Below, in pieces: positions 1 through 27,801 of a stretch of 32,000 nt of DNA (position 1 is the stretch's first letter; each line of letters begins with the position of its first letter). The stretch lies in assembly GCF_004365815.1 (NCBI RefSeq), contig NZ_SODD01000003.1:60001-92000 (forward strand). The letters run 5' to 3'. The position numbers and the translations under genes are program-made. This DNA is from Breznakia blatticola. Lineage in GTDB: Bacteria; Bacillota_I; Bacilli_A; Erysipelotrichales; Erysipelotrichaceae. The notes below the pieces were generated by a model, which saw only the letters and a program-made list of their open reading frames with translations, searched no databases and was not told where the DNA came from.

Positions 1-593
1 TAAATTTTTGCTTTAGGGTTAGCAGCTAATGCTCCTTGTTCGAATCCAGCTTGGAATGCTCCAATAACTGGTCCTTCCATACCACCGATAAATCCAACAC
101 TGTCAGATCCTAATGCTTTTGCTTCTAATGCAGCAGCAACACCAGCTAAGTATGAACCTTCGTGAGCAGCAAATACTGCAGATTGTACATTGTCAGCTTC
201 TACTACAGAATCAATAATTAAGAAGTTTGTTTCTGGGAATTGTGCAGAAACATCTTTCATTGCATCTTCGAATAAGTATCCAGCAGCAACTACTAGATCA
301 AATCCATCTTCAGATAATTGTGTAAGGTTACTTACGTAGTCAGCTTCAGCTTTTGATTCAAGGTATGTAATACAGTCATCTCCTAAACCTTCGTCTTCAG
401 CAAATTTTTTGATTCCTTCCCAAGATCCTTGGTTGAATGAACGGTCATCAATACCACCCATGTCAGTTACGAAACCAATTTTTACTTTACATGATTTGTC
501 ATCTGATCCTTTGTCTTTGTCATCTGACCCACCACAAGCTGTTAGTGTGAATACTAACATTGCACATAGTGCGATAATACTAAATTTTTTCAT
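1..593 (-). CDS. BMP-family (PnrA/Med-like) ABC-transporter substrate-binding lipoprotein, probably nucleoside-binding; C-terminal part lies beyond the window edge
   Basis: Absent from the ORF track because it is open at position 1. My minus-strand translation from ATG 593..591 (GGAGGT SD just upstream) reads MKKFSIIALCAMLVFTLTACGGSDDKDKGSDDKSCKVKIGFVTDMGGIDDRSFNQGSWEGIKKFAEDEG...HEGSYLAGVAAALEAKA. It has a signal peptide plus lipobox LTAC and the VTDxGGIDDxSFNQ motif typical of the BMP family. Confidence 0.8.
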   Translation of the reverse strand, partial: MKKFSIIALCAMLVFTLTACGGSDDKDKGSDDKSCKVKIGFVTDMGGIDDRSFNQGSWEGIKKFAEDEGLGDDCITYLESKAEADYVSNLTQLSEDGFDLVVAAGYLFEDAMKDVSAQFPETNFLIIDSVVEADNVQSAVFAAHEGSYLAGVAAALEAKALGSDSVGFIGGMEGPVIGAFQAGFEQGALAANPKAKI

Positions 594-639
594 CTTTACC
601 TCCGCGGGAAACTCCCTAAAAAACATTTAGTCAATCTAT

Positions 640-1482
640 TTATACAACGTAAACTTGTCCTTGTCTATTCATTAAAGCGATTTTCTTATAAGCATTCGCT
701 TCCGCTTCACTTACCGTCTTCATTCCGAACACGGATACCCCCTCTGGACGTACTCCATAAGGGCGGTAGCGTAGTAACTTATAAGGAATGCTCGCCTCAA
801 GATGTTTACTTACATAGTCAACGGTCTTCGTATTTTGCTCATCTTCTTCAGGCAACAATACGGTTCGCACTTCGACCAGTTTTCCTATCGATTGTAAGTA
901 TTCAAGATTTTCAAGAACAACTTTATTGCTGTATCTGCAAAGCTTTTGATGAAATGCTTCATCTACAGCTTTTACATCTAACATCACTCCATCACTAATC
1001 TCAAGTAGTGGTTTATACTGTTTAAAATCATATGCACCATTACTATCAATCAGACAGGTTAATCCCAACTTTTTCACTTCAACAAATAAATCATAAATGA
1101 AGTCTGCATAATTCATACATTCACCACCACTAACCGTAATTCCGCTAATGAATAATGCATGTTCTTTAATATATGCGACTAGTGTTTGTACATCGTATGT
1201 TTTCACTTTCGGGGATGAATGGTGTTTACATACTTTTATGCACGTATCACAGTCTACACATTTACTAGAATCCCAGACAACTTTTCCATTCACTTTGCTA
1301 AGTGCATGGGTTGGGCATGTTGGTATACATTCTCCACAATCCACACAAAGATTAATCGTTTCTGGATTGTGACAATACAAGCAACGAAATGGGCAACTTT
1401 GGAAAAAGATAGCCGTTCGATTTCCTGGTCCATCTACATTTGAAAAGGGAATAATCTTATTTACAATTGCAGTTTTACTCAC
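640..1482 (-). CDS. yjjW: glycyl-radical enzyme activating protein, YjjW-type (radical SAM)
   Basis: 280-aa ORF. VDGPGNR followed by the radical-SAM cluster motif CPFRCLYCHN, plus two ferredoxin-like clusters CVDCGECIPTCP and CVDCDTCIKVC. The GTG start (1482..1480) overlaps the stop of the upstream GRE gene (GTGAGTAA), suggesting translational coupling. Confidence 0.8.
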   Translation of the reverse strand: MSKTAIVNKIIPFSNVDGPGNRTAIFFQSCPFRCLYCHNPETINLCVDCGECIPTCPTHALSKVNGKVVWDSSKCVDCDTCIKVCKHHSSPKVKTYDVQTLVAYIKEHALFISGITVSGGECMNYADFIYDLFVEVKKLGLTCLIDSNGAYDFKQYKPLLEISDGVMLDVKAVDEAFHQKLCRYSNKVVLENLEYLQSIGKLVEVRTVLLPEEDEQNTKTVDYVSKHLEASIPYKLLRYRPYGVRPEGVSVFGMKTVSEAEANAYKKIALMNRQGQVYVV

Positions 1483-2974
1483 TGTAAATTTTGCGACTTA
1501 ACGCTTTTCCTTTTTCTTCTGCACCTTTTCCAAACATCGTTACTTGGTTTAGACTTGCTTCATTATTTCTTAATTTTTCAATTTCACTTCGTTTTACTAA
1601 ATATCCAGTTACTCGGACTACATCGTTATCTGCATTATATCCTGAGAAATAACGCATTCCACTAGTTAGAGCACCTTTAATAATTTGTAAGACTGCTTCT
1701 GGTGTTTTCGTCCATGTTTCATCAAACTTGAAGATATCTCCAACTCCAGAAACAAAATGTTTATGCATTTTTGCTTCCAATAAAATATGATCCCGTAATT
1801 CTGGTTCACTACCAATCGGAATTCTCACACCTGGTGAGTTTTCCGTACCATCACTATCGATTCCAACCTGTGCATGCATGACATAGGTATCATTGCACCC
1901 TTCACAGTACAATCCCTTATGTCCAACAACAAGGTCGTGAATCGTATCTAATATTTGCAAACCAAGATTGGTTGCTTCTTCGTTATGTCCATATCCTGCA
2001 TTTTGATCCTTACTATCAAGAAGATGGTTTACACATTCGGCTAAACCAACAACTCCAAACATACCTGTGAAGTTTTCTTGTTTTACAAACCCTTCTTTGA
2101 CTAAGAAGTTACTTTTGAAGAAACTTGATTCTTCAACAATGTAACGAATTCTTTGGTCCATGTTTTTTAGCATGATTTGTACATAATTTGGTAATACATG
2201 CGTAATGAAATCATTTGCATCTTTTGCCTTCAATGACGCATTATACAAACGAATTCTTGGTAATGTATACCCACCTCCACCAACACGTAGTGAATTGTAG
2301 CAACTAACAATTGCATATTCTTTTGAACCTGCATCTTGTTGGTACATCACATCATTGGCAAAACTTGGTTTACTTGTTGCTAACATACATTTTACACTGG
2401 CAACACCAAAGTCATCACTTGTTTTCTCTGGGTTATATAAAAGTGTAATGTTAGGAATCGCAAGTTGCATTTCCTCTGTTAGTTCTAAAATAATTCGACT
2501 TACGCGATTATCTTCTGGACCGATATTTGCATGCACGAAACTATCTGTTAATGTGCTATCGATATGTTGTAAGAATAAGCGTAATGCTTTCTTTGTTTGC
2601 TTTTCATCTGTATCAAATGGAGCGAATAATTTTGAGAAGTTTCCTAAATATACTGGAAATGAAGTAATACTAGGTACATGCTTATAGAAAATCAATAAGG
2701 CATTAGTTGCTTCCCAAATATCTGTTGGTGCTTCTATGTTTAAAAACTTACACCCTTTTTCCATTAATACTTTGTAATCAGGCACTATATACCGTGGTCG
2801 GTATGGTGCAAGACCTTCACCTAAGTCACATAAAATTTCTTCATTTAATGCTTCAATCCATTCTGGATCACGAGCTAATGAATCATCCATGTTTTCCGCT
2901 AAGCGAGCAAGTGATAAAACTTGTTGTTCATACGTTAAGGTTGGATCGCTAATAATATCGTGTACTTTGCTCAT
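1475..2974 (-). CDS. yjjI: short glycyl-radical enzyme, YjjI family (substrate unknown)
   Basis: 499-aa ORF with SD AGGAGA 6 nt upstream. C-terminal glycyl-radical fingerprint VVRVTGYLVKR (Gly457 codon = 1604..1606). About 500 aa rather than the 750-850 aa of PFL-type GREs, matching the YjjI class. A dedicated activase lies immediately downstream. Confidence 0.75.
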   Translation of the reverse strand: MSKVHDIISDPTLTYEQQVLSLARLAENMDDSLARDPEWIEALNEEILCDLGEGLAPYRPRYIVPDYKVLMEKGCKFLNIEAPTDIWEATNALLIFYKHVPSITSFPVYLGNFSKLFAPFDTDEKQTKKALRLFLQHIDSTLTDSFVHANIGPEDNRVSRIILELTEEMQLAIPNITLLYNPEKTSDDFGVASVKCMLATSKPSFANDVMYQQDAGSKEYAIVSCYNSLRVGGGGYTLPRIRLYNASLKAKDANDFITHVLPNYVQIMLKNMDQRIRYIVEESSFFKSNFLVKEGFVKQENFTGMFGVVGLAECVNHLLDSKDQNAGYGHNEEATNLGLQILDTIHDLVVGHKGLYCEGCNDTYVMHAQVGIDSDGTENSPGVRIPIGSEPELRDHILLEAKMHKHFVSGVGDIFKFDETWTKTPEAVLQIIKGALTSGMRYFSGYNADNDVVRVTGYLVKRSEIEKLRNNEASLNQVTMFGKGAEEKGKALSRKIYSE

Positions 2975-2985
2975 CCTGTTCTCCT

Positions 2986-4185
2986 TTATTTTTCTAGTTG
3001 TTCAACTAGCGTATCTAAAACACTTTCACCAATGGTACCTTCTGGCATTGCAACTTCAAAGTTATCGCAAATCGTAGCACCAATATTGGCAAATGTATCA
3101 AATTCTGTAATATGTTTTCCCGCTACCATCTTCTTGCTGTAGGCGATGAATGGTACTGTTTCTTTGGTATGATCACTACCTTCATATGTTGGATCATTTC
3201 CATGGTCTGCAGTAATAATTACCAAATCATCATCTTGCATTTGTTCTATAAACACATTTAATTTTTCATCAAATCGTTCCAGTTCTTCTCCATATCCTAC
3301 AGGGTTTCTTCTGTGTCCCCATAAAGCATCGAAGTCAACTAGGTTGGTAAAACATAACCCGGTAAAATCTTTTTGTAGTAGATCAATGGTTTGTTCCATC
3401 CCGTGAACTGAACTTTTACTTTTATATGCTTCACTAATGCCTTCACCATCGAAGATATCTTTAATCTTTCCAACACTGATGACATCATAGCCACCATCTT
3501 TTAAAGCATCTAGTGCAGTTGGACCGTATGGTTTTAATGCATAATCATGACGATTTGCCGTACGGACAAATTCACCTTTTTTACTTCCTGTGTATGGACG
3601 TGCAATAACACGACCAACCATCCATTCTGGACGCATCGTTAATTCACGTGCAATTTCACAGTATTTATATAAAGTTTCTACACCCATCGTTTCTTCATTC
3701 CCACAAATTTGCAGAACGGAATCCGCAGATGTATACACAATTAAGACACCATTGTTGATTTCATCTTCACCAAATTCATCAAGAATTTCAGTACCTGATG
3801 CACTTTTATTTCCAACAATTTTACGACCTGTACGTTTTTCCAATTCATCAATTAATTCTTTTGGAAATCCAGTTTCTGTAAATGTTTTAAATGGTGTTTT
3901 AATTTCAAGACCCATCATTTCCCAGTGTCCAGTCATCGTATCTTTTCCAACACTTGCTTCTTTCATTTTTGTGTAAACTGCTTTAGGTGAAGCATTTGCT
4001 TCTACACTTGCAAGTGGTGTAATATTTGCCATTCCAAGTTTTTGTAATGTTGGAATTTTGAAGTTAGGCATATGATCTGCAATGTGTGCTAATGTATTTG
4101 CACCAGTATCATAACCTGGTAAATCATCTGCACCAACGCCAAGTGAATCAACGACGATGGTAAAGATTCTTTTATAGTTTTTCAT
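2986..4185 (-). CDS. deoB: phosphopentomutase
   Basis: 399 aa. N-terminal [14 protein letters not shown] and C-terminal [21 protein letters not shown] motifs of the alkaline-phosphatase-superfamily phosphopentomutase. SD AAGGAGA. Lies 11 nt after deoD. Confidence 0.93.
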
Positions 4186-4196
4186 TAGAACTCTCC

Positions 4197-4913
4197 TTAT
4201 AGTTTAATTGCACTTTCTAAGGCAACTTCCATCATTTCATTGAATGAATTTTGTCTTTGTTCAGCTGTTGTTACTTCGTGTGTTACTAATGAATCAGAGA
4301 TTGTTAGTAAACATGCAGCTTTCTTACCTAAGATTTGTGCGTTATGGAATAATGCAAAACTTTCCATTTCGACACATACACAACCATGTTTTTCATAGAA
4401 CTCAACGTGTCCATCTACATTATCTTCATGATAGAACACATCACTTGAGTGAATTGTATTCTCGTGAACGGTTTTTCCAATCTTTGTTGCTGTGTCAGCA
4501 ATCAATGCATTTAATTCACGGTTTGGTTCGATTACATCTTTATCATAACCAGATTGTGCAAGTGCAAAACTTGATTCACTCCATGCATCTTTTGCAAGCA
4601 CAAGATCAAATAGGTTTAAATTATCTGTATATGCTCCTGCACTACCAATACGAATAATTACTTCTACATCAAAGAATTTAAATAATTCATATGAGTAGAT
4701 ACCAATGCTAGGCATTCCCATTCCTGAACCCATAACACTGATTTCCTTTCCTTTATATGTTCCGGTAAATCCAAACATATTTCTTACACTATTAAATTGT
4801 TTTACATCCTCTAAGTATGTATCAGCGATAAACTTAGCACGTAAAGGATCACCCGGCATCAGAACAACTTTAGCAATTTGTCCCTTTTCTGCTTGAATGT
4901 GTGGTGTTGCCAT
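4197..4913 (-). CDS. deoD: purine nucleoside phosphorylase, DeoD type
   Basis: 238 aa. [30 protein letters not shown]...[17 protein letters not shown]...CVCVEMES, full-length resemblance to hexameric DeoD PNP. SD AGGAGGAG at 4920..4927. Confidence 0.93.
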
Positions 4914-4929
4914 AAATTTCTCCTCCTAT

Positions 4930-4960
4930 GACATGCTTTTTAAATTTTTCTGCGCATGTC
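4930..4960. promoter_or_regulatory. inverted repeat GACATGC-N17-GCATGTC in the deoD / crp-like divergent intergenic region (operator or 5'-UTR hairpin)
   Basis: GACATGC 4930..4936 and GCATGTC 4954..4960 are exact reverse complements. A third ACATGC lies at 4964..4969. On the minus-strand RNA the stem ends 2 nt before the deoD SD. Confidence 0.35.
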
Positions 4961-4961
4961 T

Positions 4962-4991
4962 TTACATGCACATCATAACTTGGTGTATAAT
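4962..4991 (+). promoter_or_regulatory. candidate sigma-A promoter of the Crp/Fnr-family gene
   Basis: TTACAT (4962..4967), 18-nt spacer, TATAAT (4986..4991), about 38 nt upstream of ATG 5030. Confidence 0.4.
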
Positions 4992-5029
4992 ATTAAAAAA
5001 GGCCATGTGTCCCTTTTTGGAGAAAAAAT

Positions 5030-5767
5030 ATGAAATTTTTATTAGATCAGATTGAGCACCTATTACAACCCGATACATATGCATTTCTAGCAACGCTTTT
5101 TAAGCAATGTCCAAAAGATATACTAATGCGTATGGATATCATGCATTTTCCCAAGAATCATATTATTATGCATACGGGAGATCCCAACAAAGATGTCTAC
5201 ATTCTTGTCAAAGGTGGAATTGAAGGGGTCGATGAGTCAGTACCAACCATTCCATATACATTCAGTGATTTACGTCCAATTGATATATTAGGTGACTATG
5301 AATTATTTAGTAATGTAGCCACACGGTATGTATCTTTACGAACAACAACTGAAACAACATGCTTAAGAATCAATGCCCAAGATTATTTAAGCTGGATGAA
5401 AACCGATATCAACGCGTTATTTATGCGTATGGGAATGTTAATGCTTGTACTTGGACAAGAGACCCAGTTCCATCGTCAATTCTTATTTTTAGACAATGAA
5501 ACTCGATTATTATTATTCTTACTCGAACAAGTAGAAAAGAAAGCAAAACACTTTCCGTACAAAGTTGAAGCAAGTCGTGAACAAATCGCTTCACGTATCG
5601 CAAGTAGTATTCGTACACTCAATCGAACACTATCAAAACTTGAAGACATGGGAATGATTTCTCGTGTTCATGGAAAAATCATTATTTCAAAACAACAGAG
5701 TGTTCTAATCAAAGCTGCAATTCATCAAGCAGAAAATGATTTACGACTCACTTTACCGAAGACATAA
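5030..5767 (+). CDS. Crp/Fnr-family transcriptional regulator (cNMP-binding-like domain + C-terminal HTH)
   Basis: 245 aa, SD GGAGA. The N-terminal beta-barrel-like effector region (..DVYILVKGGIEG..) and C-terminal HTH (REQIASRIASSIRTLNRTLSKLEDMGMI) fit the Crp/Fnr layout. There is no N-terminal Cys cluster, so it is not a classical FNR. Confidence 0.7.
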   Translation: MKFLLDQIEHLLQPDTYAFLATLFKQCPKDILMRMDIMHFPKNHIIMHTGDPNKDVYILVKGGIEGVDESVPTIPYTFSDLRPIDILGDYELFSNVATRYVSLRTTTETTCLRINAQDYLSWMKTDINALFMRMGMLMLVLGQETQFHRQFLFLDNETRLLLFLLEQVEKKAKHFPYKVEASREQIASRIASSIRTLNRTLSKLEDMGMISRVHGKIIISKQQSVLIKAAIHQAENDLRLTLPKT

Positions 5768-5778
5768 GAGTAATTATT

Positions 5779-5808
5779 AAAAAACTCTCAACAGTGTTGA
5801 AAGTTTTT
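5779..5808. terminator. bidirectional intrinsic terminator between convergent genes
   Basis: A-run, then CTCTCAAC (5785..5792), loop agt, GTTGAAAG (5796..5803), then TTTTT. One mismatch in an 8-bp stem. Confidence 0.65.
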
Positions 5809-5811
5809 AAT

Positions 5812-6198
5812 CTAGAGAAAACTTGAATGAATCACATCATTCACTTGAATTACATCTTTTCCTATAAATTTAAAATAGAAATTCTTTGTAGTTATTGAAT
5901 CAAACTTTGTTGTGTAATAAATAAGTCCATTGACAGTAACTTTAAATAATTCACGCTTTCCAATGGTTACCGTATCTTCTATTTGGCACACCACACTATT
6001 ATTTTCGGGAGAATCTAAAATTTTCCCAAATAAAAGTATTTTACAATCATATAGTTCATTCAATTTCATGAAATCGAAATTTTCTAAACTATATAAAGCT
6101 GAATCATCAAAACACTCATCTATAGTTAAGGTATCCTGATTTTGAAGATTTAATACTCTAGTCATTGCAGATTCCTTAATATTCAATAATTTGTACAT
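5812..6198 (-). CDS. hypothetical protein (128 aa)
   Basis: ORF with strong SD GGGAGG 6 nt before ATG 6198. No motif I recognise. Confidence 0.6.
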   Translation of the reverse strand: MYKLLNIKESAMTRVLNLQNQDTLTIDECFDDSALYSLENFDFMKLNELYDCKILLFGKILDSPENNSVVCQIEDTVTIGKRELFKVTVNGLIYYTTKFDSITTKNFYFKFIGKDVIQVNDVIHSSFL

Positions 6199-6621: not shown

Positions 6622-7293
6622 TTATAAAGTTTTCGCGCGTATGTAACGCAGTAATTTAGGTTTACGTGAGCGCGATATAGGTAGACGCACATGGTTATGT
6701 AGTTCTACTTCATCACCTTCAATTCTGAAAATATATTCATAATTGACAAGAATTCCGCTGTTTACCCGAACGAAATCGTATGGTTCAAACTCTTCACTTT
6801 TCTTGTTCATACTTCCACGTTCGTAAAATTCACCACGCTTTGTATAGTATACCAAGTTCTTTTCTTCTTTTATCACGTAATAAATGTCATGGTATTTCAA
6901 TTTCAATGTGACTCCATTATATGAGAATAAATACTCACTATGTTTACGTAAACGAATATTGATCATATCTTTGATGCGAACAAACTCATTGGCAAAATCC
7001 GAACGCTTGATGCGAAAGATTCGTCCATAGTTAACATTTTGACTTTCATATCCATCTTGGCATAAGTAAATATACACACTATTGCTTTTATCAAAATTCA
7101 ATGCAGATGTAATACGCACATTATTGTATGCCTCATTTAAAATGACAACATCAAATTGCCCTGTATCTTCTTTGACTAAATCCACAATCTTCTCATAGTA
7201 GTTAAACGTAAATTCATCACTTAGAATCTTCGGTAATAAGAAGATAACATCTTTAGCAATTTTTTCTTGTTCAACTATTGCAACTTTCAACAT
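6622..7293 (-). CDS. LytTR-family DNA-binding regulator with degenerate (non-phosphorylatable-looking) N-terminal receiver-like domain
   Basis: The C-terminal half (..LKYHDIYYVIKEEKNLVYYTKRGEFYERGSMNKKSEEFEPYDFVRVNSGILVNYEYI..) has the LytTR pattern. The start is moved to ATG 7293 (SD AGGAGA 8 nt upstream), because the track start at 7299 is a TTG. No sensor kinase is adjacent. Confidence 0.7.
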   Translation of the reverse strand: MLKVAIVEQEKIAKDVIFLLPKILSDEFTFNYYEKIVDLVKEDTGQFDVVILNEAYNNVRITSALNFDKSNSVYIYLCQDGYESQNVNYGRIFRIKRSDFANEFVRIKDMINIRLRKHSEYLFSYNGVTLKLKYHDIYYVIKEEKNLVYYTKRGEFYERGSMNKKSEEFEPYDFVRVNSGILVNYEYIFRIEGDEVELHNHVRLPISRSRKPKLLRYIRAKTL

Positions 7294-7351
7294 ACACAAA
7301 ATCTCCTACAGGTATTATACACTATTCTAATTTTTTCCCAAAGGATAATCG

Positions 7352-7421: not shown

Positions 7422-9947
7422 ATGAAACAAAAAATCGATGTAACCGGAATGACATGTAGTGCTTGTGCTGCACATGTAGAAAAAGCAGTAAAGAAATTAC
7501 CAGGCACAAAAGAGGCTAATGTCAATTTAATGCAAAACAAATTACTCATTGATTACGATCCTAAAGTAACTAGTGAGCAAGATATCAGCAGTGCTATTGA
7601 AGCTGCAGGATATGGCGTAAAAAAAGAGGTGCAAACAGCCGATACAGAAAATCAATTTGCTAAACAAGCAAAACAGGAAAAGCGAAAACTTTGGATTTCT
7701 GTAATCTTATTGATCGTACTTATGTATATTTCTATGGGAAGTATGGTTGGCTTACCTTTACCATCCTTTTTAGATGGATTACATAATGCGATCACCTTTG
7801 CGATGGTTCAATCTCTTTTAACACTAGTTATCTTGAGTATGCATTTCCATTATTTTAAAAATGGCTTTAAGGCACTGATTCATCGTGCACCTACAATGGA
7901 TTCCTTAATTGCCTTAGGAAGTAGTGCTGCTTTACTTTATGGTATTTATGCAATTATCATGATGGGACAAGGTCTAGCAAATCAAGATATGCATATGGTT
8001 CACACATATCACATGGACTTATACTTTGAAAGTGCAGCAATGATTGTGACTTTAATTTCGGTAGGTAAATACTTAGAAACCCGTTCGAAAGGTAGAACCA
8101 ATGATGCCATTCAGAAATTAATGGATCTTACACCAAAAACCGCATTCGTTCAAAAAGGTGATCAAGTAATTGAAGTTTCCATTGAAGATGTGCAAAAAGA
8201 TGACATCTTAATTGTTAAGACTGGTGCAAGCATTCCTGTGGATGGAAAAATTATCGAGGGAAGTGGAACACTTGATGAAGCTTTAATTACTGGAGAAAGT
8301 ATTCCTGTTGAAAAACACGAAGCAGATAAAGTAATTGGTGGAACCATCCTTGTTTCTGGTTATATAAAAATGCAAGCACTTAGTGTTGGTGAAGATACAA
8401 CCATTGCTAAGATCATTCAACTTGTTGAAGATGCAAATGCCTCAAAGGCTCCAATTGCAAAACTTGCGGATAAAGTAAGTGCTGTATTCGTACCAATCGT
8501 TATTGTCATTGCAACTATTGCGACCATCACATGGTTAGCTCTAGGTTACGATCTTAGTTTCTCATTATCCATTGGTATTGCAGTTCTTATTATTAGTTGT
8601 CCTTGTGCACTTGGTTTAGCAACCCCAACAGCAATTATGGTTGCAACTGGAAAAGGTGCGCAATTAGGAATTCTATTCAAGAATGCCGAAAGCTTAGAAC
8701 AAGTTGGTAAAATGGATACTATCGTTTTAGATAAAACTGGTACCTTAACAAAAGGAAAACCGGAAGTTACTGATGTAGTAAGTGAAAATGAGATGCACTT
8801 ATATGCTGTTGCTTATGCACTTGAACATAGAAGTGAACATCCTCTAGCAAAAGCAATAATCAATTATACTAAAGATAAAGATATCGAAGCGATTCCTATT
8901 GAACAATTCGAACAAATCGCTGGACAAGGAATCAAAGCAAGTAGTGAGACAAACACCTATTTTGCTGGAAATGCAAAAATGATGGAAGTAAACCAAATAC
9001 AAATCGATGCTTATCAACAAGTTGCCTCGCAGTTTGCAAATGAAGGAAAAACTGTCTTGTACTTTGCTGAAAACAATCAAGTCATCGGACTGATTGCACT
9101 TGCAGATGTATTAAAAGATAGCAGTGTCGAAGCTATTGCAGCAATTAAGCAACTTGGTAAAGAAGTCGTGTTATTAACTGGTGATAACAAGCAAACTGCA
9201 GCCGCAATATCGAAAAAAGCAAATATCGATACCGTCATTGCTGAAGTATTACCACAAGATAAAGAAGAATATGTTCGTAAATTACAAGCGCAAGGAAAAC
9301 AAGTTGCCATGGTTGGTGATGGAATCAATGATGCACCTGCACTTGCCAGAGCAGATGTTGGAATTGCAATTGGTGCAGGAACCGAGATTGCCATGGAAAG
9401 TGCTGATGTTGTTTTAATGCACAGCGACTTAATGGATGTAGCAACAAGTATTCAATTAAGTAAAGCAACCATTCGCAATATCAAACAAAACTTATTTTGG
9501 GCATTCTTCTATAATGCCATCGGAATTCCATTAGCTGCAGGACTGTTCTATCCAACTTTCCAATTGAAACTAAACCCAATGTTTGGTTCAGCAGCAATGA
9601 GTTTATCCAGTTTATTTGTTGTAAGTAATGCATTGCGCTTACGTTTCTTTAAACCAACGTATACTAGCACAAGCTCACAACAACATGAAGTACATACAGA
9701 AACAATCGAAATAGACAAAAAGAAAGGAGGATTACCTATGAACAAAGTAATCCATATTAATGGCATGATGTGTGCCAACTGTGAACGTCACGTAAATAAC
9801 GCATTAAATGCACTAGATGGAGTTGAAGCAAAAGTGGATCTAGCAAATAATCTAGCAAATGTTACACTTTCAAAAGATGTTGATGATGCAACACTTACCA
9901 AAGCTGTTACTGATGCAGGATATGAAGTTACTTCCATTGAAGGTTAG
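7422..9947 (+). CDS. copA: copper-translocating P1B-type ATPase CopA with an N-terminal HMA domain and an unusual in-frame C-terminal CopZ-like HMA domain
   Basis: 841 aa. Motifs GMTCSACAAHVE, CPC (SCPCALGLATP), DKTGTLT, GDGINDAP. The C-terminal 69 aa are MNKVIHINGMMCANCERHV... The internal ATG 9738 is preceded by AAAGGAGG (9723..9730) with a 7-nt spacer. Confidence 0.95.
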   Translation: MKQKIDVTGMTCSACAAHVEKAVKKLPGTKEANVNLMQNKLLIDYDPKVTSEQDISSAIEAAGYGVKKEVQTADTENQFAKQAKQEKRKLWISVILLIVLMYISMGSMVGLPLPSFLDGLHNAITFAMVQSLLTLVILSMHFHYFKNGFKALIHRAPTMDSLIALGSSAALLYGIYAIIMMGQGLANQDMHMVHTYHMDLYFESAAMIVTLISVGKYLETRSKGRTNDAIQKLMDLTPKTAFVQKGDQVIEVSIEDVQKDDILIVKTGASIPVDGKIIEGSGTLDEALITGESIPVEKHEADKVIGGTILVSGYIKMQALSVGEDTTIAKIIQLVEDANASKAPIAKLADKVSAVFVPIVIVIATIATITWLALGYDLSFSLSIGIAVLIISCPCALGLATPTAIMVATGKGAQLGILFKNAESLEQVGKMDTIVLDKTGTLTKGKPEVTDVVSENEMHLYAVAYALEHRSEHPLAKAIINYTKDKDIEAIPIEQFEQIAGQGIKASSETNTYFAGNAKMMEVNQIQIDAYQQVASQFANEGKTVLYFAENNQVIGLIALADVLKDSSVEAIAAIKQLGKEVVLLTGDNKQTAAAISKKANIDTVIAEVLPQDKEEYVRKLQAQGKQVAMVGDGINDAPALARADVGIAIGAGTEIAMESADVVLMHSDLMDVATSIQLSKATIRNIKQNLFWAFFYNAIGIPLAAGLFYPTFQLKLNPMFGSAAMSLSSLFVVSNALRLRFFKPTYTSTSSQQHEVHTETIEIDKKKGGLPMNKVIHINGMMCANCERHVNNALNALDGVEAKVDLANNLANVTLSKDVDDATLTKAVTDAGYEVTSIEG

Positions 9948-9949
9948 TC

Positions 9950-10222
9950 ATGCAAGCAGATCATAAAAAAATAGAGCGCTATTTGAAAACTGCTCGTGGC
10001 CAAATTGATGGCATTTTAAAAATGATTGAGGAAGACAAGTACTGTATCGACATCGTCAATCAAGTATTGGCTAGTGAAGCATTATTATCAAAAGCAGCTA
10101 AACAAATATTACTTGGACATATCCAAGGCTGTATCGTTGAAAGCTTTGAATCCGATGATAAAGAATATCAAGCCGAAAAAATGGCTGAACTTTCAAAAGT
10201 ATTAGACCGAATCGCAAAATAA
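9950..10222 (+). CDS. csoR: CsoR-family copper-sensing transcriptional repressor
   Basis: 90 aa. The DUF156/CsoR pattern has ligand residues in ..KYCIDIVNQV.. and ..HIQGC.. (Cys-His-Cys set). The ATG lies 2 nt after the copA stop. Confidence 0.85.
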   Translation: MQADHKKIERYLKTARGQIDGILKMIEEDKYCIDIVNQVLASEALLSKAAKQILLGHIQGCIVESFESDDKEYQAEKMAELSKVLDRIAK

Positions 10223-10253
10223 GAGGTAAATCCGCAAAGATTGCCTCTTTTTT
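10222..10253 (+). terminator. intrinsic terminator of copA-csoR
   Basis: AGAGGTAAATC / GATTGCCTCT stem (one bulge, one G-U) with loop cgcaaa, followed by TTTTTT (10248..10253). Confidence 0.7.
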
Positions 10254-10316
10254 ATTTGAAATCACTAGCTTATATTATACATAAAGATGGGTAATTTTAT
10301 AAAACTGAGTTTGCAC

Positions 10317-10352
10317 AAAAAAAACAGAATTAACATTTCTGCTAACTCTGTT
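10317..10352 (-). terminator. intrinsic terminator of the perR-like/rubrerythrin operon
   Basis: Minus-strand RNA ACAGAGTTA-gcagaaatg-TTAATTCTGT followed by T8 (plus-strand A-run 10317..10324). Confidence 0.7.
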
Positions 10353-10363
10353 ATTTACACGAT

Positions 10364-10930
10364 TTATTTGTGGTTTGAAAATCTTGTATTTGTGAATTTC
10401 TTTTCTTCCACTGCGAATTCAGCTTGACCAAATCCACATACTGGACAAATTTTTGGTGCTTCTACACCTTCTGCATGATATCCACAGATTCCACATACCC
10501 AAGTAGTTGCTTCATCTTTTTTGAATACTTTACCTTCTTCTACATTTTTAAGAAGATCTAAGTAACGTTCTTCGTGACCTTTTTCGATTTTCGCAACTTG
10601 TTCCATTTGGAATGCAATTTTTGTAAATCCTTCTTCGTGAGCTTCTTTTGCCATACGGTCATACATATCTGTCCACTCGTAGTTTTCACCTTCTGCAGCA
10701 GCTTTTAAGTTGTCAGCAGTTGTGTGAATTTCTCCACCTTGAAGTGCTTTGAACCATAATTTTGCGTGTTCTTGTTCGTTACGTGCTGTTTCTAAGAAAA
10801 TTTCAGCAATTTGTTCCATACCTTCTTCACTAGCTTTTTGTGCAAAGTATGTATACTTGTTTCTTGCCATTGATTCCCCAGCGAATGCATCTAATAAATT
10901 TTTCTCAGTTTTTGAACCTCTTAATTCCAT
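10364..10930 (-). CDS. rbr: rubrerythrin
   Basis: 188 aa. The N-terminal ferritin-like di-iron domain has EESMARNKY / [11 protein letters not shown] / AAEGENYEW / KGHEERY-type E..H motifs. The C-terminal rubredoxin-like part is CGICG...CPVCG. SD GGAGGT. Confidence 0.9.
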
Positions 10931-10944
10931 GTCTGTCTAACCTC

Positions 10945-11331
10945 CTATTTTTCTAAACAATCCTTACAGACTCCTTTAACAACGACTTCATGTGAGTCGA
11001 TTTGACCAACCACATCGTCGTTTGTAAATTTGCTATGATATTCCGGGTCGAACGGTGCTTCTAAGTCGTATAATTTATGACACTTCTCACAAAAGAAATG
11101 ATAATGTGGATCACTTGTTTTATCGTAAACAAAGCGGTCTCCATCAATTGGAATTTTCTTTACTTGATGCATTTCACTAAGAATACCTAGGTTACGATAA
11201 ATCGTTGCTAGTGAAATCTTCAAGCCTTTTTGATTCATTCCTTCATAAATTTGTTCCGCACTGGCATGACCAATCATACCTTGCATATAATCTAAGATCA
11301 TATCCCTTTGTTTTGAGTGCTTATATGACAT
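10945..11331 (-). CDS. Fur-family metalloregulator, probable peroxide-stress repressor (PerR-like)
   Basis: 128 aa. Winged-helix N-terminus (..SLATIYRNLGIL..), HYHFFCEKC...CKDC structural Zn CxxC pairs. It lies 14 nt upstream of rubrerythrin in the same operon. The PerR assignment rests on context only. Confidence 0.7.
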   Translation of the reverse strand: MSYKHSKQRDMILDYMQGMIGHASAEQIYEGMNQKGLKISLATIYRNLGILSEMHQVKKIPIDGDRFVYDKTSDPHYHFFCEKCHKLYDLEAPFDPEYHSKFTNDDVVGQIDSHEVVVKGVCKDCLEK

Positions 11332-11846: not shown

Positions 11847-12701
11847 CTATAATTCTTTAAAATATTGAATGGCTAATGAACCAATTCCCGTGTGTACTCC
11901 AACAACACTTACAAGTTTAATGAAATTGTAATGTGCATTTGGAAAATACTCTTTACACTGTTCCAAAAACTTTCTTCCTAATTCTTCAGCTTTTACATGC
12001 GTTACTGTAATACTATACTGTTCACCTAAAGCTGGAATTTCCTTTTTCATAATTTCTAGTGTTTCATCAAGTGCTTTACTCATTGTACGCACTTTATCTT
12101 TTACATCTACTTTTCCTTTAGTACTCTTGTTGATTTGTAAGATTGGTTTAATCTTTAGAAACCCACCAAGTGTTGCAGCTAGTGGTGTTAAACGTCCACC
12201 ACGACGCATATGTTGTAAATCATCAGGGATAATTAATGTATTTGTCGTATCACAAATCTCATTTAAGATATCCATAATTTCATCAATTGTTTTGCCTTGT
12301 TCGTATAGTTCTTTTGCACGAACAACCATATATCCTTCAACAACTGCAGTTACATGGTTATCAAATCCATAGAATATAAGCCCTACTTGTTTTGCGACCA
12401 TTTCCATGGCATCCATCGTTCCACTAAGTCCTTTACAAATCGGAACACAGAAAACGGCTTCATATCCATCATCTTTTAACTTAGTGAATAATTCTTCAAT
12501 TCTACCAAGTGGTGCTAGTGATGTTTTGATCACTTTCTTTTGTTCCATCAATTCGTTAACTTGGTCAACGTTAATGTCTTCATTTTCTAAATATGCGTGA
12601 TTTCCTTCAGAGATTTGCAAAGGCACACTGTACACGCCATGTGCAGCTGCTTCTTTTACACTCCATCCAGTTCCACTGTCAGTAACAAATGCTATTTTCA
12701 T
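11847..12701 (-). CDS. DegV-family fatty-acid-binding protein (FakB-like), paralog 3 of 3
   Basis: 284 aa. MKIAFVTDSGTG... start and the ..RRGGRLTPLAATLGGFLKIKPIL.. motif typical of DegV. Confidence 0.85.
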   Translation of the reverse strand: MKIAFVTDSGTGWSVKEAAAHGVYSVPLQISEGNHAYLENEDINVDQVNELMEQKKVIKTSLAPLGRIEELFTKLKDDGYEAVFCVPICKGLSGTMDAMEMVAKQVGLIFYGFDNHVTAVVEGYMVVRAKELYEQGKTIDEIMDILNEICDTTNTLIIPDDLQHMRRGGRLTPLAATLGGFLKIKPILQINKSTKGKVDVKDKVRTMSKALDETLEIMKKEIPALGEQYSITVTHVKAEELGRKFLEQCKEYFPNAHYNFIKLVSVVGVHTGIGSLAIQYFKEL

Positions 12702-12712
12702 ATGAATATCAC

Positions 12713-13561
12713 CTAAACTTTCTTAATATATTGCAATCCAATCGCTCCAGTTCCGGTATGCGCCGCAATAACTGGTGCAAGCAATCCAAATACTTTCATA
12801 TCTGTTTGTACTGTATCAAAGTATAATTCTTTCATCAGTACACCTGCTTCATCTGCATTTACATGTAAAATTGCAATCACATATGAATCATCAATTCCTC
12901 GTTCTAAAAATGTATCAACTGCTTGCTTAATCGCTTTTGACATCGTACGAACTTTTGCATGTTGATCCACTTTTCCACCACTTGATTCATTTAGTTTTAG
13001 GATTGGCTTAATTTTTAGCATTCCTCCTAATTTCGCCGCCATAGGTGTTAGTCTTCCTCCAGCTGCTAAATGATCAAGATTTTCTACAATTAAAAATGTA
13101 TTACTATCATCAATAGATGCTTGTATACGTGTTTTGATTTCTTCGATATCCAATCCTTCATCGACCAAACGTTTTGCACTTTCAGCAATATACATTTGAA
13201 TAAAAGCGGTTGTATAAATTTCGAAGCAAGTAATTGGTAATCCAACATTATCTGCTGCTAATTTTACTGCTTGCATCGTTCCTGAAATACCTGCACTCAA
13301 TGGTACAAAGATTAAATGTTCATATCCATCTTCTTTCATTTTCTCAAGCATTTCTTCAACCAATCCAATTGGTGGTAAACTTGTTTTCAACATCTTTCCA
13401 TCTTCTAACATTTGAAAGATTTGTTCAGTTGTTGTATCGACTCCATCTAAATATACGTTATCACCATCAATAATTTGTAATGGCAAAAAGTATAACCCTT
13501 TGGCTTCTACCTGCTCTTTGGTTAAACCGCACCCACTATCGGTTAATACTGCAATTTTCAT
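12713..13561 (-). CDS. DegV-family fatty-acid-binding protein (FakB-like), paralog 2 of 3
   Basis: 282 aa. MKIAVLTDSGCG... and ..AAGGRLTPMAAKLGGMLKIKPIL.. Confidence 0.85.
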   Translation of the reverse strand: MKIAVLTDSGCGLTKEQVEAKGLYFLPLQIIDGDNVYLDGVDTTTEQIFQMLEDGKMLKTSLPPIGLVEEMLEKMKEDGYEHLIFVPLSAGISGTMQAVKLAADNVGLPITCFEIYTTAFIQMYIAESAKRLVDEGLDIEEIKTRIQASIDDSNTFLIVENLDHLAAGGRLTPMAAKLGGMLKIKPILKLNESSGGKVDQHAKVRTMSKAIKQAVDTFLERGIDDSYVIAILHVNADEAGVLMKELYFDTVQTDMKVFGLLAPVIAAHTGTGAIGLQYIKKV

Positions 13562-13576
13562 GTTTTCTTTTCTCCT

Positions 13577-14434
13577 CTAATTTGTTTTCAAAGTTGTTTG
13601 TACTGCCACACAGCCAAGTCCCCCGTGACAAGTTAGGACTGTTGGTAGTTCAATGATTTCACACTCAATATCGTCAAAGTACGCTTTGGCAATTTTTTCA
13701 ACCTTTTGCGCTCCTTTTAAATTATTCGCATGCAAGATATAGGCTTTATGCGTTAGTGCTGTTACATTTAGTGAACGCAGTTTATCCACTGCTTCAGAAA
13801 CCAACTTTGTTTCCGTACGTGCTACTGCAAACTTATCAACAACACTTCCATCTTCTTTTAAATATAATAAGATTTTAATTCGCAACAAAGATGCGACATT
13901 TGCCGCAATTGGCGAAATACGTCCACCGCGTTTTAGTTGCGTTAAACTTTCTGGATATAAATACGAGAAACTGTTTTTACATTTTAAATCAATTACTTGT
14001 AAAATCTCATCTACGCTTTTATCTTCACTTGCCATTTGTTTCGCAGTGCGTACACAATCAAGAATCGGTGCAGCAACACTACGCGTATCAATAATGTATA
14101 CATTACTCATACCTAAATCTTCTTTTACCATGTGGTATGTGTGGTTTGCCCCACTTAAAGAAGATGAACATGTAAAGATTAGAATTGCTTCATAATCTTT
14201 TTGTTTCCACTCTTCCATACGTTGCGTAACATACCCAATACTTGGTTGTGATGTTGTTGGTACAACACCATTTTCTAATTCACGATAAAGCGTTTCTTTA
14301 TCTATATCTATAAGATCTTTAAATTCACGTTCATTTATAATGACGGAAAGCGGCAGCAATTCTACACCAAGTGCATCTGCCATTTCAAAATCCATTGCAC
14401 TTGTCGTATCACATACAATTAAATAGTTTTTCAT
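13577..14434 (-). CDS. DegV-family fatty-acid-binding protein (FakB-like), paralog 1 of 3 (most divergent)
   Basis: 285 aa. ..IVCDTTSAM.. and ..KRGGRISPIAANVASLLRIKILL..; SD GAGGT. Confidence 0.8.
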   Translation of the reverse strand: MKNYLIVCDTTSAMDFEMADALGVELLPLSVIINEREFKDLIDIDKETLYRELENGVVPTTSQPSIGYVTQRMEEWKQKDYEAILIFTCSSSLSGANHTYHMVKEDLGMSNVYIIDTRSVAAPILDCVRTAKQMASEDKSVDEILQVIDLKCKNSFSYLYPESLTQLKRGGRISPIAANVASLLRIKILLYLKEDGSVVDKFAVARTETKLVSEAVDKLRSLNVTALTHKAYILHANNLKGAQKVEKIAKAYFDDIECEIIELPTVLTCHGGLGCVAVQTTLKTN

Positions 14435-21181: not shown

Positions 21182-21703
21182 TTAGTTTGATATGCTTCCT
21201 TCAATGCCACCCGTTTCAGTTATAGCGTTGAGCACATGATACATCATACCTAAGAGAAATTTGTCAATCTTATTATCCTTATCTGATAACTCTTTAAAGA
21301 AAATCCCCTTTTTAGTTTTTAAATAAACTCTAACATTGTCACTATTGTAAAAGTCTGTTTTGTCTGTTTTTTTCATATATGGTAGAACTTGATGACTACT
21401 AATCAAAACTGATTGCATTGCGCGCATTACAGGATTTCTTTCCTCTAACCCCACAACAACAGAACCACTACCATGATATAAATGTGTATTCAGTCCAAAA
21501 ACAAGGGCTAAACTTTGTGTTTGAAATCCTACAATACCACTTTCAATAGGAATGTCAAAAACTGCAATATACACTTGCTCATCATTATCAAGTCTTAAAT
21601 TCATATCTTCATTTGTATACTGTAGAACCTGATCTCTATTGGCGATATATGTTGGACTCACGTTTAAACCTTCTACAAATTCAAAAATACTTTCTTTACT
21701 CAT
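21182..21703 (-). CDS. hypothetical cytoplasmic protein (173 aa), islet gene 1
   Basis: ORF with strong SD GAGGAGGAG before ATG 21703 (MSKESIFEFVEG...). No recognisable motif. Confidence 0.6.
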   Translation of the reverse strand: MSKESIFEFVEGLNVSPTYIANRDQVLQYTNEDMNLRLDNDEQVYIAVFDIPIESGIVGFQTQSLALVFGLNTHLYHGSGSVVVGLEERNPVMRAMQSVLISSHQVLPYMKKTDKTDFYNSDNVRVYLKTKKGIFFKELSDKDNKIDKFLLGMMYHVLNAITETGGIEGSISN

Positions 21704-21797
21704 AATACTCCTCCTCATTCATATGTATAACTCTATTATCGTTGGAAATGTTCTTATATTTATATTATTAACCAAATCAGCATTACCTCCACATATT

Positions 21798-21960: not shown

Positions 21961-21985
21961 AAATCTTGTTTCATCGTTTTTCAAG
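21961..21985. repeat. 25-bp direct repeat, right copy (covers the last 4 codons, the stop and 10 nt of 3' UTR of the PfkB-like gene)
   Basis: AAATCTTGTTTCATCGTTTTTCAAG. Its minus-strand reading is CTT GAA AAA CGA TGA + AACAAGATTT. Confidence 0.9.
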
Positions 21986-22870
21986 TTTTCCACAAACGAT
22001 TTTGCTTTTGATTTGTTCTACAGTGTCCTTGCTACCTGCAAAGATTCCGCTACTTAAGCTACTTGCCACATTACGCGCAAGACACTCTTGAATAAAGCGT
22101 GTAATATCTCCTTCATTTTCGTAGCATATTGCAATACCTGATGCAATCGCACCTAGATAACTTTGATTACTTTCATCTTTAACTGCACATGAACCATAGT
22201 ACATTTGATTTTCAACACTCACGATAATGCGATTGTTTTTCATTGCAAGTACGATAATTCGTGCGTATTTATGTAGCTCAGTTGTAAGTGCTTGAATCTT
22301 ATCCTGATCCAAAGCATCAATTTCGTATATATGTGCAAGTTCATCAAAGTCAAATACAAGTACATTGTAATATACATCTTGATGTACAACTTTCTCTACA
22401 GGTAATACACCTACAAGAATATCGACATGCTCTTTACACATTTGACTTAAATACTCTAATTGATTTGTGCTTGCATCTTGGCCATCACAAATAATTGCGA
22501 TATCACTTTTTTGTAACTTACTTTGTGCAAGCATACGATACAGTTGCATCTGTGAACCATCTAGTTCCATTTCATGTTCTGTCATGCTATGCAGCAATGT
22601 ATCATCTTCATACATCGATACTTGTAATTTATTGTGAGCAGTAATTTCTAGAACTTCAGTGTTAGCAATATCTACAAATTTGGTGGCATCACTAGCTAAC
22701 ATCATCATTTGTTTGCATGCAAGCCCTTCTTGCTGTATGTATGATTGACATTGCAAACCATCACCCATCACTTGATAGGTAATATGTTCACTATAAAACT
22801 GTCCATCTTCATCTGTTTTTCCACGTACTACTTTTTGTAGGTATGGATATAAGGATAAGATTTGTATCAT
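21971..22870 (-). CDS. PfkB/1-phosphofructokinase-like protein with degenerate catalytic motifs (family call by eye)
   Basis: 299 aa. The ATG overlaps the nnr stop (ATGA), with SD GGAGGAA. The layout resembles PfkB sugar kinases (MIQILSLYPYLQKVV.., ..IIVLAMKNNRIIV.., ..NQSYLGAIASGIAICYENEG..), but GGKG and GAGD signatures are not conserved. Confidence 0.45.
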   Translation of the reverse strand: MIQILSLYPYLQKVVRGKTDEDGQFYSEHITYQVMGDGLQCQSYIQQEGLACKQMMMLASDATKFVDIANTEVLEITAHNKLQVSMYEDDTLLHSMTEHEMELDGSQMQLYRMLAQSKLQKSDIAIICDGQDASTNQLEYLSQMCKEHVDILVGVLPVEKVVHQDVYYNVLVFDFDELAHIYEIDALDQDKIQALTTELHKYARIIVLAMKNNRIIVSVENQMYYGSCAVKDESNQSYLGAIASGIAICYENEGDITRFIQECLARNVASSLSSGIFAGSKDTVEQIKSKIVCGKLEKR

Positions 22871-24410: not shown

Positions 24411-24830
24411 CTACTTACTTATATAATTGCACCAATTTGTTTGCATCATGTAAGCCAAATGTTTGCTACTATAAAGCATCTCTTTTGCTCCATCGATCAT
24501 CACAAAGAACTGTACAACTTCTCCTTCATAGTAAAACTTCACTTCTATTTTATAGTGTTTTTTCTTTACTTGAAAATCATCCATTTGCACTTTGTAATAT
24601 ACAAAAGATTCATTTCCATCAATACTAGCTAAAACCATTTTATCTGGTCCAACCACAAGTTTATATGGTCTTTCTTCATAATATGAAGATTGATGATCTT
24701 GTTGCATCACAAATGATAACAGGCTTTTCTTTTTACCAAAGGTACGAAAAGCAATCATCGTATTTTGATTTGGTTCTATTTCATGAGATTGTGCAAAGAC
24801 TTCCATGTCTTTTTCTGTTGGTAGTTGCAT
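24411..24830 (-). CDS. hypothetical protein (about 139 aa)
   Basis: ORF. SD AAGGAG is followed by tandem ATGs at 24833 and 24830, and I chose the better-spaced one. No recognisable motif. Confidence 0.55.
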   Translation of the reverse strand: MQLPTEKDMEVFAQSHEIEPNQNTMIAFRTFGKKKSLLSFVMQQDHQSSYYEERPYKLVVGPDKMVLASIDGNESFVYYKVQMDDFQVKKKHYKIEVKFYYEGEVVQFFVMIDGAKEMLYSSKHLAYMMQTNWCNYISK

Positions 24831-24896
24831 CATATACTCCTTATCTATATATAGTATAGTCACATGCAACTATAAAACAACAGTTCTTCCTAGGAT

Positions 24897-26286: not shown

Positions 26287-26287
<1 letters not shown>
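25793..26287 (-). CDS. PTS EIIA component, glucose/beta-glucoside family
   Basis: 164 aa from ATG 26287, which overlaps the upstream stop (TAATG). ..VFAQEMMGQTIGIIP..PTGHAFGI..GYLIHIGINTSSMNGKGF.. includes the two conserved His residues of EIIA-Glc. Confidence 0.85.

Positions 26288-27801
<1,514 letters not shown>

Follow-up and report, generated by a model that had tools for sequence, protein, structure and literature searches.

A YjjI/YjjW glycyl radical enzyme pair in a nucleoside-utilization operon of Breznakia blatticola

A stretch of 32,000 nucleotides (nt) from contig NZ_SODD01000003.1 of Breznakia blatticola, referred to here as the window, contains at its left end a nucleoside-utilization operon of this anaerobic, Breznakia-like member of the Erysipelotrichaceae. 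Between the genes for a purine-nucleoside phosphorylase and a phosphopentomutase on one side and the gene for the binding protein of a BMP-type ATP-binding cassette (ABC) importer on the other, this operon carries yjjI and yjjW, which encode a glycyl radical enzyme (GRE) of a functionally orphan family and its activase. Evaluation of the gene neighborhoods of yjjIW indicated that the BMP-type importer, and not the deo genes, is the partner that recurs in the clade of the window. The reading best supported by these data is a functional tie of yjjIW to the uptake and catabolism of nucleosides. Gene context and conserved residues suggest, with a probability of roughly 0.5, that YjjI performs radical chemistry on a nucleoside-derived phosphorylated pentose or ribosyl compound.

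The operon and the gene neighborhoods of yjjIW

The visible part of the operon consists of five co-directional genes on the minus strand. The first gene, deoD (4913..4197), encodes a DeoD-type purine-nucleoside phosphorylase of 238 amino acids (aa), which matched TIGR00107 with 283 bits and NF004489 with 294 bits. It is followed by deoB (4185..2986) for a phosphopentomutase of 399 aa (TIGR01696, 529 bits; NF003766, 534 bits), yjjI (2974..1475) for the YjjI-family GRE of 499 aa, yjjW (1482..640) for the YjjW-family activase of 280 aa, and bmp (593..1), which is cut by the edge of the window after the N-terminal 197 aa of the product. The bmp product, a lipoprotein of the BMP/PnrA-like type, is the substrate-binding component of an ABC importer and has an E value of 3e-43 for the Pfam Bmp/PnrA-like domain and an N terminus of the form MKKF...LTAC|GG that includes the lipobox LTAC. 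The gaps between the genes, as read from the junction sequences, are 11, 11, −8, and 46 nt, and ribosome-binding sites are located ahead of deoB and yjjI (AAGGAG) and ahead of bmp (GGAGG). The GTG start of yjjW overlaps the stop of yjjI by 8 nt within ...CAGTGAGTAA, which suggests translational coupling. A scan of the minus strand from position 1 to 5900 found no terminator-like site. The table of open reading frames (ORFs) and the junction sequences reproduced the coordinates, gaps, and motifs that a first-pass annotation of the window had listed for these five genes. The operon-like arrangement proposed there stood as well: tight gaps and missing terminators are consistent with one transcription unit, short of proof.

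The closest homologues were those of Breznakia and other Erysipelotrichaceae. Breznakia pachnodae possesses the same operon in identical gene order, with identities of 83% for DeoD, 78% for DeoB, 78% for YjjI, 56% for the N-terminal part of the BMP protein, and 50% for a divergently encoded regulator. Downstream of bmp, the operon of B. pachnodae continues with genes for a double-ATPase and two permeases, followed by cdd for cytidine deaminase and pdp for a DeoA-like pyrimidine-nucleoside phosphorylase; deoC is absent from this locus, as it is from the operon in the window. By analogy, the operon of the window probably continues beyond its edge with genes for an ABC ATPase and two permeases, cdd, and pdp, and the GRE pair would then probably sit mid-way in a ten-gene nucleoside-utilization operon.

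The neighborhood comparison covered 80 species-level genome loci from the Erysipelotrichales, several families of the Clostridia, and a few Anaerolineae, with YjjI proteins of 55 to 78% identity, plus 13 contexts outside this clade. The outside contexts came from representatives of 50%-identity clusters and from two additional searches for homologues. For the 80 loci, the complete set of ORFs was clustered free of prior assumptions, and Pfam members were counted among the two nearest genes on each flank of yjjIW. Both approaches yielded the BMP-type ABC importer as the recurrent partner of yjjIW in the clade of the window. The Pfam counts were 15 members for Bmp, 22 for ABC_tran, and 8 for BPD_transp_2, followed by 5 for IU_nuc_hydro and 4 each for ADP_ribosyl_GH and PfkB. 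A BMP gene or the genes for its permeases were present within 6 kb in 26 of the 80 loci, or in 32 of the 80 when the ATPase was counted, and the association was found in 19 of the 46 loci with complete flanks. Most of the BMP genes, 17 of 20, were located within 2 kb of yjjIW, corresponding to 6.1 genes per 100 kb versus about 0.4 per 100 kb at a distance of 2 to 10 kb. The density of BMP genes near yjjIW was in this way increased about 15-fold; other transporter families were not enriched among the neighbors of yjjIW.

At least five architectures combine BMP transporter genes with yjjIW across the Erysipelotrichales and several groups of the Clostridia. The transporter genes may be located downstream of yjjIW in the same direction, yjjIW may be wedged between divergent ATPase/permease genes and a convergent BMP gene, may be accompanied by a divergent pair of genes for a nucleoside hydrolase and an ADP-ribosylglycohydrolase, may be at the end of a transporter-hydrolase operon, or may be part of the fusion with deoDB as in the window. 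The different gene orders speak for the linkage between BMP genes and yjjIW having been selected repeatedly. BMP-family nucleoside ABC importers are PnrA of Treponema pallidum and BmpA-NupABC, RnsBACD, and NupNOPQ of Firmicutes. With these the window, from the truncated gene alone, shares the Bmp/PnrA-like domain and the lipobox, and relatives of the window carry the genes for a double-ATPase and two BPD_transp_2 permeases that are characteristic of this importer family. We know of no characterized BMP-type importer with a GRE pair inside the transporter operon.

Other genes related to nucleosides or pentoses, such as those for nucleoside hydrolase, ADP-ribosylglycohydrolase, PfkB kinase, cdd, and deoC, occurred sporadically near yjjIW. 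An RbsK-like kinase is encoded beside yjjW in one locus (L077), a PfkB kinase directly upstream in Holdemania, cdd is near yjjI in a rumen Clostridiales metagenome-assembled genome (MAG; L050) and in B. pachnodae (L002), and deoC is near yjjI in L050 and L005. A protein of the ADP-ribosylglycohydrolase family with about 650 to 680 aa and an IU-type nucleoside hydrolase are encoded together next to yjjIW in five loci (L022, L027, L028, L077, and L078). Such pairs hint at the possible import of a riboside of greater complexity.

Both deoD and deoB were within 10 kb of yjjI in only 2 of the 80 loci, B. pachnodae and the rumen MAG L050, the latter with a gene order different from that of the window and with deoC and cdd also present. 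Outside the clade, deo genes were beside yjjIW in 2 of the 13 contexts, Escherichia coli and Edwardsiella. Edwardsiella has the divergent deoCABD on one side and nupC beside yjjW on the other, and Proteus has no deo operon near yjjIW despite the regional synteny being kept. In Caminicella, Tepidibacter, Lutispora, an Atribacteria MAG, and six further contigs, yjjIW was a stand-alone pair among unrelated neighbors. In Caminicella sporogenes (L083), a neighbor from another part of nucleotide metabolism was seen once: the gene for dihydrofolate reductase (7499-8008) has an 8-nt overlap with the start of yjjI. In Haemophilus influenzae, HI0520/HI0521 are probably neighbors of nupC and deoD. The fusion of deoD-deoB with yjjI is a rare, lineage-specific arrangement, and the linkage to deo genes that the first-pass annotation had taken to be conserved across phyla did not hold up. 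Its proposal of a nucleoside link of the GRE fared better, being carried by the recurrent BMP importer, the sporadic hydrolase, kinase, cdd, and deoC genes, and nupC in Edwardsiella instead of by the deo linkage itself. A pentose phosphate as the possible substrate, also put forward there, is plausible.

The adjacency of yjjW-yjjI (b4379-b4380, minus strand) and deoCABD (b4381-b4384, plus strand) in E. coli K-12, which had been pointed out before, was seen in strain MG1655, where both units are divergent. YjjI and YjjW of E. coli (PF11230, formerly DUF3029) belong to the same families as the proteins of the window, with 38% identity over the full length. Both species have in common the S-C-Y-N and RVTGY motifs, an activase gene immediately downstream that overlaps yjjI, adjacent deo genes, and an anaerobic lifestyle or regulation. 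In the window, however, yjjIW are co-directional with deoD-deoB and are located between these genes and the importer gene, and deoC and deoA, which are part of deoCABD in E. coli, are not in the visible part of the operon; neither was found among the annotated ORFs of the 32-kb window. The DeoR operator O1 of E. coli is located within the coding sequence of yjjI. The operator consensus, the palindrome TGTTAGAATTCTAACA, was present in the E. coli K-12 locus (L001) as a perfect copy inside yjjI (coding sequence 9516-11066, minus strand) and as a copy with one mismatch in the yjjI-deoC spacer. These sites (10665-10680 and 11264-11279) are exactly 599 bp apart, and none was expected by chance. A transcript from the upstream deo promoter must therefore cross the 5' end of yjjI and its promoter in antisense direction. 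The upstream promoter region of deo and yjjI physically overlap in E. coli, which is tighter than plain adjacency. Among 5,426 complete E. coli genomes, 5,424 carried yjjI-yjjW. The E. coli gene is directly activated by FNR (PMC3688515), and yjjIW is anaerobically induced in Yersinia (PMC3792023). Both findings, together with the genes for rubrerythrin and pyruvate:ferredoxin oxidoreductase in the window, support an anaerobic role.

YjjI and YjjW compared with characterized glycyl radical enzymes

YjjI matched TIGR04040 with 680.2 bits (cut-off 498.3) over residues 3 to 496 and PF11230, YjjI-like, with 693.8 bits over residues 13 to 496 of 499, and YjjW matched TIGR04041 with 357 bits (cut-off 250) in addition to Radical_SAM and several Fer4 models of Pfam. 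These scores are far above the cut-offs and establish the membership in the YjjI and YjjW families that had been assigned in the first-pass annotation. The radical motif of YjjI is VVRVTGYLV with Gly457, the codon of which is at 1606..1604 as calculated from the start at 2974. The catalytic loop is S224-C225-Y226-N227 and the glycyl motif R454-V-T-G457-Y458. Among sequences from 50%-identity clusters, the loop S-C-[YF]-N was kept in all 21 that were checked, and the glycyl motif R-[VI]-[TS]-G-[YF] in all 18 of these that were not truncated at the C terminus; both motifs were also conserved across 378 full-length homologues. Invariant or near-invariant in these 378 sequences were S224-C225-Y226-N227, with Asn227 in 372 of them, G457, G233, E53-G54, R61-Y62, H148, N175, K202, R240, E294, H367, Q369, D375, R384, and R494. 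Nearly all members of the three main clades (353 of 355) had Cys49; substitutions by His, Tyr, or Asp were restricted to 7 of 22 divergent cluster representatives. The YjjI family is small and clearly delimited: a scan of 1.84 billion 50%-identity representatives yielded 685 matches to YjjI, with about 20 full-length clusters.

An AlphaFold2 model of YjjI (pLDDT 93.8, pTM 0.92) was compared with the PDB by Foldseek, which resulted in 120 matches with E ≤ 0.001, the top 50 of them all being GREs. The best match was a class III ribonucleotide reductase (RNR; 8p2c_A, E 3e-16, TMq 0.72), closely followed by dehydratases, the isomerases YbiW/PflD, and pyruvate formate-lyase (PFL) with E values of 1e-14 to 1e-11. 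Model and matches support a GRE fold with the ten-stranded barrel, in the core of which the Gly loop and the Cys loop would meet. A profile alignment placed S224-C225 of YjjI on C418-C419 of PFL and RVTG457Y on RVSG734Y. Single-sequence and profile searches of the PDB sequences found no solved relative (best E value, 0.26), and the Pfam model NRDD matched residues 238 to 348 with 29.5 bits, just above the cut-off of 26.2. With 499 aa, YjjI is as compact compared to other GREs as the first-pass annotation had stated, and it represents the structurally most compact GRE core. YjjI is a genuine but minimal GRE with YjjW as its dedicated activase.

The radical-SAM motif CX3CX2C of YjjW is C30-x3-C34-x2-C37 in CPFRCLYCHN, and two ferredoxin-type CX2CX2CX3C motifs, CVDCGECIPTCP (CVDCGECIPTC) and CVDCDTCIKVC, contribute eight cysteine residues. 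The gene yjjW was directly downstream of yjjI in 68 of the 80 related loci. In three Anaerorhabdus loci (L034, L070, and L079), BMP transporter genes directly follow yjjI, and in L018 and L081 other genes do so. No gene for a YjjW-like activase was found within 10 kb of yjjI in any of these five loci, which indicates that the activase is encoded elsewhere or shared.

Class III RNRs (NrdD; 8p2c_A, 4coj, and 1h7b) resemble YjjI most closely in structure, with TMq values of 0.67 to 0.73. Both have a glycyl radical near the C terminus and a thiyl cysteine on a finger loop, both are among the smallest GREs, and NrdD acts on a ribose ring. Sequence identity is, however, only 12 to 16%, and RVCGY of NrdD is RVTGY in YjjI. 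The Met-Gly-Cys motif around C384 of E. coli NrdD is Val/Ala-Ser-Cys in the YjjI family and Val-Ser-Cys225 in the window. The Zn ribbon at the C terminus of NrdD is missing from YjjI, which has no cysteine beyond residue 360, as are the ATP cone and the allosteric specificity site; 12 residues precede the family domain in the 499-aa protein. YjjW contains the two-cluster ferredoxin insert that NrdG does not possess. In an hhalign comparison with the single E. coli NrdD sequence, which with a probability of 42% is too weak for a confident mapping of residues, C175 of NrdD, the second active-site cysteine of this enzyme, was at R61/Y62 of YjjI, 12 residues downstream of Cys49.

The GRE 1,2-eliminases and isomerases GDH, PD, CutC, HypD, IslA, YbiW, PflD, and HplG carry a Cys-x-Glu motif on the cysteine loop (PMC13450708). 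This motif is missing from YjjI, which has Cys225-Tyr226-Asn227 instead, and the Cys-Cys pair C418-C419 of the formate-lyases PFL and TdcE is replaced by Ser224-Cys225. YbiW and PflD, former orphan GREs of E. coli, are C-O lyases for 1,5-anhydroglucitol-6-phosphate and 1,5-anhydromannitol-6-phosphate (PMC13450708; PDB 8id7 and 8id0), which abstract a hydrogen atom beside the C-O bond of a cyclic sugar phosphate before a ring-opening elimination. They matched the YjjI model with E values of about 1e-12 to 1e-13 but have about 765 to 810 aa compared to 499 aa, keep the Cys-x-Glu motif in contrast to the Cys-Tyr-Asn of YjjI, and have no significant sequence similarity to YjjI. Since the signature residues of every characterized GRE class are missing from YjjI, it would represent a separate class, and its chemistry is likely to be new. 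As the first-pass annotation had stated, no substrate is assigned: neither searches of the literature on YjjI/YjjW, nor the PDB sequences, NCBIfam 2026 (“hypoth_equivalog”), or the RefSeq 2026 names gave a function, and a GRE review of June 2026 does not mention the YjjI family.

Control region and other genes in the window

The operon and the divergently oriented gene of a Crp/Fnr-family transcription regulator (5030..5767, plus strand, 245 aa, matches to cNMP_binding and HTH_Crp_2) are separated by a control region of 116 nt (4914..5029). The regulator does not contain the N-terminal cysteine cluster of the FNR type. It is divergent from the operon in the window as well as in B. pachnodae and probably controls it. 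In an alignment, the spacer shares with B. pachnodae the blocks GGACAC(A/T)TG(G/A)CCTTTT and AATTATACAC(C/T)AAG, and it contains short inverted repeats, e.g., GACATGC/GCATGTC, which may form the operator of this regulator. A consensus promoter scan of the spacer gave nothing convincing, and no riboswitch or other Rfam RNA element was found upstream of deoD.

Elsewhere in the window, genes for rubrerythrin, pyruvate:ferredoxin oxidoreductase, two HAD phosphatases, a beta-glucoside phosphotransferase system (PTS), and three paralogues of DegV are present. The organism is an anaerobic fermenter, and the remaining genes have no further bearing on nucleosides. The three DegV-family paralogues of 284, 282, and 285 aa are encoded in tandem on the minus strand (11847-14434). 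HMA domains are located at the N as well as the C terminus of a P-type heavy-metal ATPase, the gene of which adjoins that of a LytTR-domain regulator without a recognizable receiver domain (7422-9947 and 6622-7299). The beta-glucoside-type PTS operon (25793-30360) encodes a BglG-family antiterminator (PRD and CAT_RBD), EIIBC, a GH1 phospho-beta-glucosidase, and EIIA; Rfam reported no RAT or terminator element for it. Five ORFs of 128 to 299 aa had no Pfam match at E ≤ 1e-5 (5812-6198, 21182-21718, 21971-22870, 24411-24869, and 24897-25496). Among them, 21971-22870 overlaps the end of a YjeF-type NAD(P)HX repair gene, and 24411-24869 and 24897-25496 are on the minus strand just 3' of the PTS operon.

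Possible reactions of YjjI and their meaning

By analogy with known GREs, YjjW, as a radical-SAM enzyme that would carry three [4Fe-4S] sites, would cleave S-adenosylmethionine and take a hydrogen atom from Gly457. The radical would then move on to Cys225, which is located at the tip of the finger loop S-C-Y-N, and the resulting thiyl radical would abstract a hydrogen atom from the substrate. The invariant residues Arg61, Arg240, Arg384, Lys202, His148, and His367 suggest an anionic, probably phosphorylated substrate, which could be a ribosyl or pentose compound derived from imported nucleosides. Leading candidates would be ribose-5-phosphate, deoxyribose-5-phosphate, and ribose-1-phosphate, because DeoD plus DeoB, nucleoside hydrolase plus PfkB kinase, and the deo genes of E. 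coli converge on these compounds. A redox-neutral radical beta-elimination or isomerization that cleaves a C-O, C-OP, or C-C bond of the pentose is weakly favored, for which the action of YbiW and PflD on anhydro-sugar phosphates would be the precedent, and a reduction to a deoxy-sugar in the style of NrdD is ranked second. The deoxy-keto product of such an elimination or isomerization may then enter fermentation. More tentatively, YjjI might represent an eighth functional class of GREs that acts on ribose-5-phosphate or another ribosyl compound from imported nucleosides, with either radical dehydration or ring-opening to a deoxy-keto-pentose phosphate or an RNR-independent reduction to deoxyribose phosphate as its reaction. 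With either reaction, E. coli, Salmonella, and many Firmicutes of gut and rumen would possess a new anaerobic branch of nucleoside and pentose metabolism.

Several points weigh against radical chemistry on a nucleoside-derived compound. The 80 loci are from related species and their counts are not independent, the fusion of deoD/deoB with yjjI is rare, and yjjIW was a stand-alone pair in about 60% of the close relatives and in 11 of the 13 outside contexts. The BMP family of binding proteins is not restricted to nucleoside receptors, and the best NCBIfam match of the Bmp lipoprotein of the window, a weak one, is a putative B6 transporter/binding protein. The near-universal Cys49 would suit a reductase as well as an eliminase, and we infer both the substrate and the reaction type. 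Alternatively, yjjIW may be an independent module of two genes with many insertion sites in genomes, acting on a substrate unrelated to nucleosides, with nucleoside genes as neighbors due to shared anaerobic regulation, inherited synteny, or chance. The stand-alone pairs in most sampled lineages, the about 60% of close relatives without any nucleoside gene nearby, and the varying neighbors, which include genes for dihydrofolate reductase, a recombinase, a methyl-accepting chemotaxis protein, MFS plus GDPD, LysR, a topoisomerase, LuxR, and branched-chain ABC transporters, agree with such a module, and so does a 2011 co-expression study in which yjjI of E. coli was placed in one group with nitrate/nitrite genes (PMC3228777). 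Speaking against it are the about 15-fold concentration of the BMP gene within 2 kb of yjjIW, the recurrence of this association in five or more gene orders across the Erysipelotrichales and several groups of the Clostridia, the different nucleoside genes (deoCABD and nupC) that flank yjjIW in unrelated Enterobacteriaceae, and the lack of enrichment of other transporter families. A substrate unrelated to nucleosides is consequently rather unlikely.

If YjjI were a stripped-down NrdD-like reductase, it would convert ribose-5-phosphate, ribose-1-phosphate, or a ribonucleoside to the 2-deoxy form with formate or a thiol as reductant, and the product could be cleaved by DeoC to acetaldehyde and glyceraldehyde-3-phosphate or be used as deoxyribose-1-phosphate for deoxynucleosides via the reversible DeoB, DeoD, and Pdp reactions. 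Class III RNRs being the best structural matches, the NRDD match just over its cut-off, Cys49 as a near-universal second cysteine in the N-terminal part of the barrel, deoC as immediate divergent neighbor in E. coli as well as Edwardsiella and at a short distance in L050 and L005, and deoB plus deoD directly upstream in the window all fit this reaction. The other GRE classes matched nearly as well (E 1e-14), however, and the weak alignment did not place C175 of NrdD on Cys49. The Met-Gly-Cys context is changed, Zn ribbon, ATP cone, and specificity site are missing, and the activase is of the ferredoxin-domain and not of the NrdG type. Moreover, the Pfam counts in the 80 loci yielded no recurrent thioredoxin-like or formate-related neighbor, and deoC is missing from the operons of the window and B. 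pachnodae, so that a reductase appears improbable. The BMP importer might, on the other hand, bring in a non-canonical ribosylated compound, such as a modified nucleoside, a ribosylated cofactor, or an ADP-ribose-like metabolite. YjjI would act on this compound or its unusual moiety, and DeoD and DeoB would merely clear the ribose. Canonical nucleosides do not need radical chemistry, and a non-canonical compound is in agreement with the ADP-ribosylglycohydrolase-family proteins paired with IU-type hydrolases in five loci and with the weak B6 match of the Bmp protein. The data point to no specific compound of this kind, the operons of the window, B. pachnodae, and L050 contain only the canonical enzymes deoD, deoB, cdd, pdp, and deoC, and yjjIW of E. 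coli has no adjacent BMP transporter, which renders a non-canonical substrate very doubtful. Radical chemistry of YjjI on a nucleoside-derived pentose phosphate or ribosyl compound is preferred over these alternatives.

YjjI is encoded by an FNR-activated core gene of E. coli that is functionally an orphan, and the locus in the window gives a concrete and testable clue to its function. YbiW and PflD, which were assigned in about 2024, are the precedent for a context-guided assignment of an orphan GRE. We infer that YjjI may be the last GRE of E. coli without a substrate. The adjacency to deo in E. coli has long been visible as a hint; the window adds a rare and unusually informative operon fusion of this orphan family. 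The association with the BMP importer is an independent and stronger argument for a radical step tied to nucleosides than the deo linkage. Together, operon and BMP association narrow the search for the substrate of YjjI to a few compounds that can be purchased. If the link is true, an oxygen-sensitive step would be added to the nucleoside and pentose catabolism of gut anaerobes.

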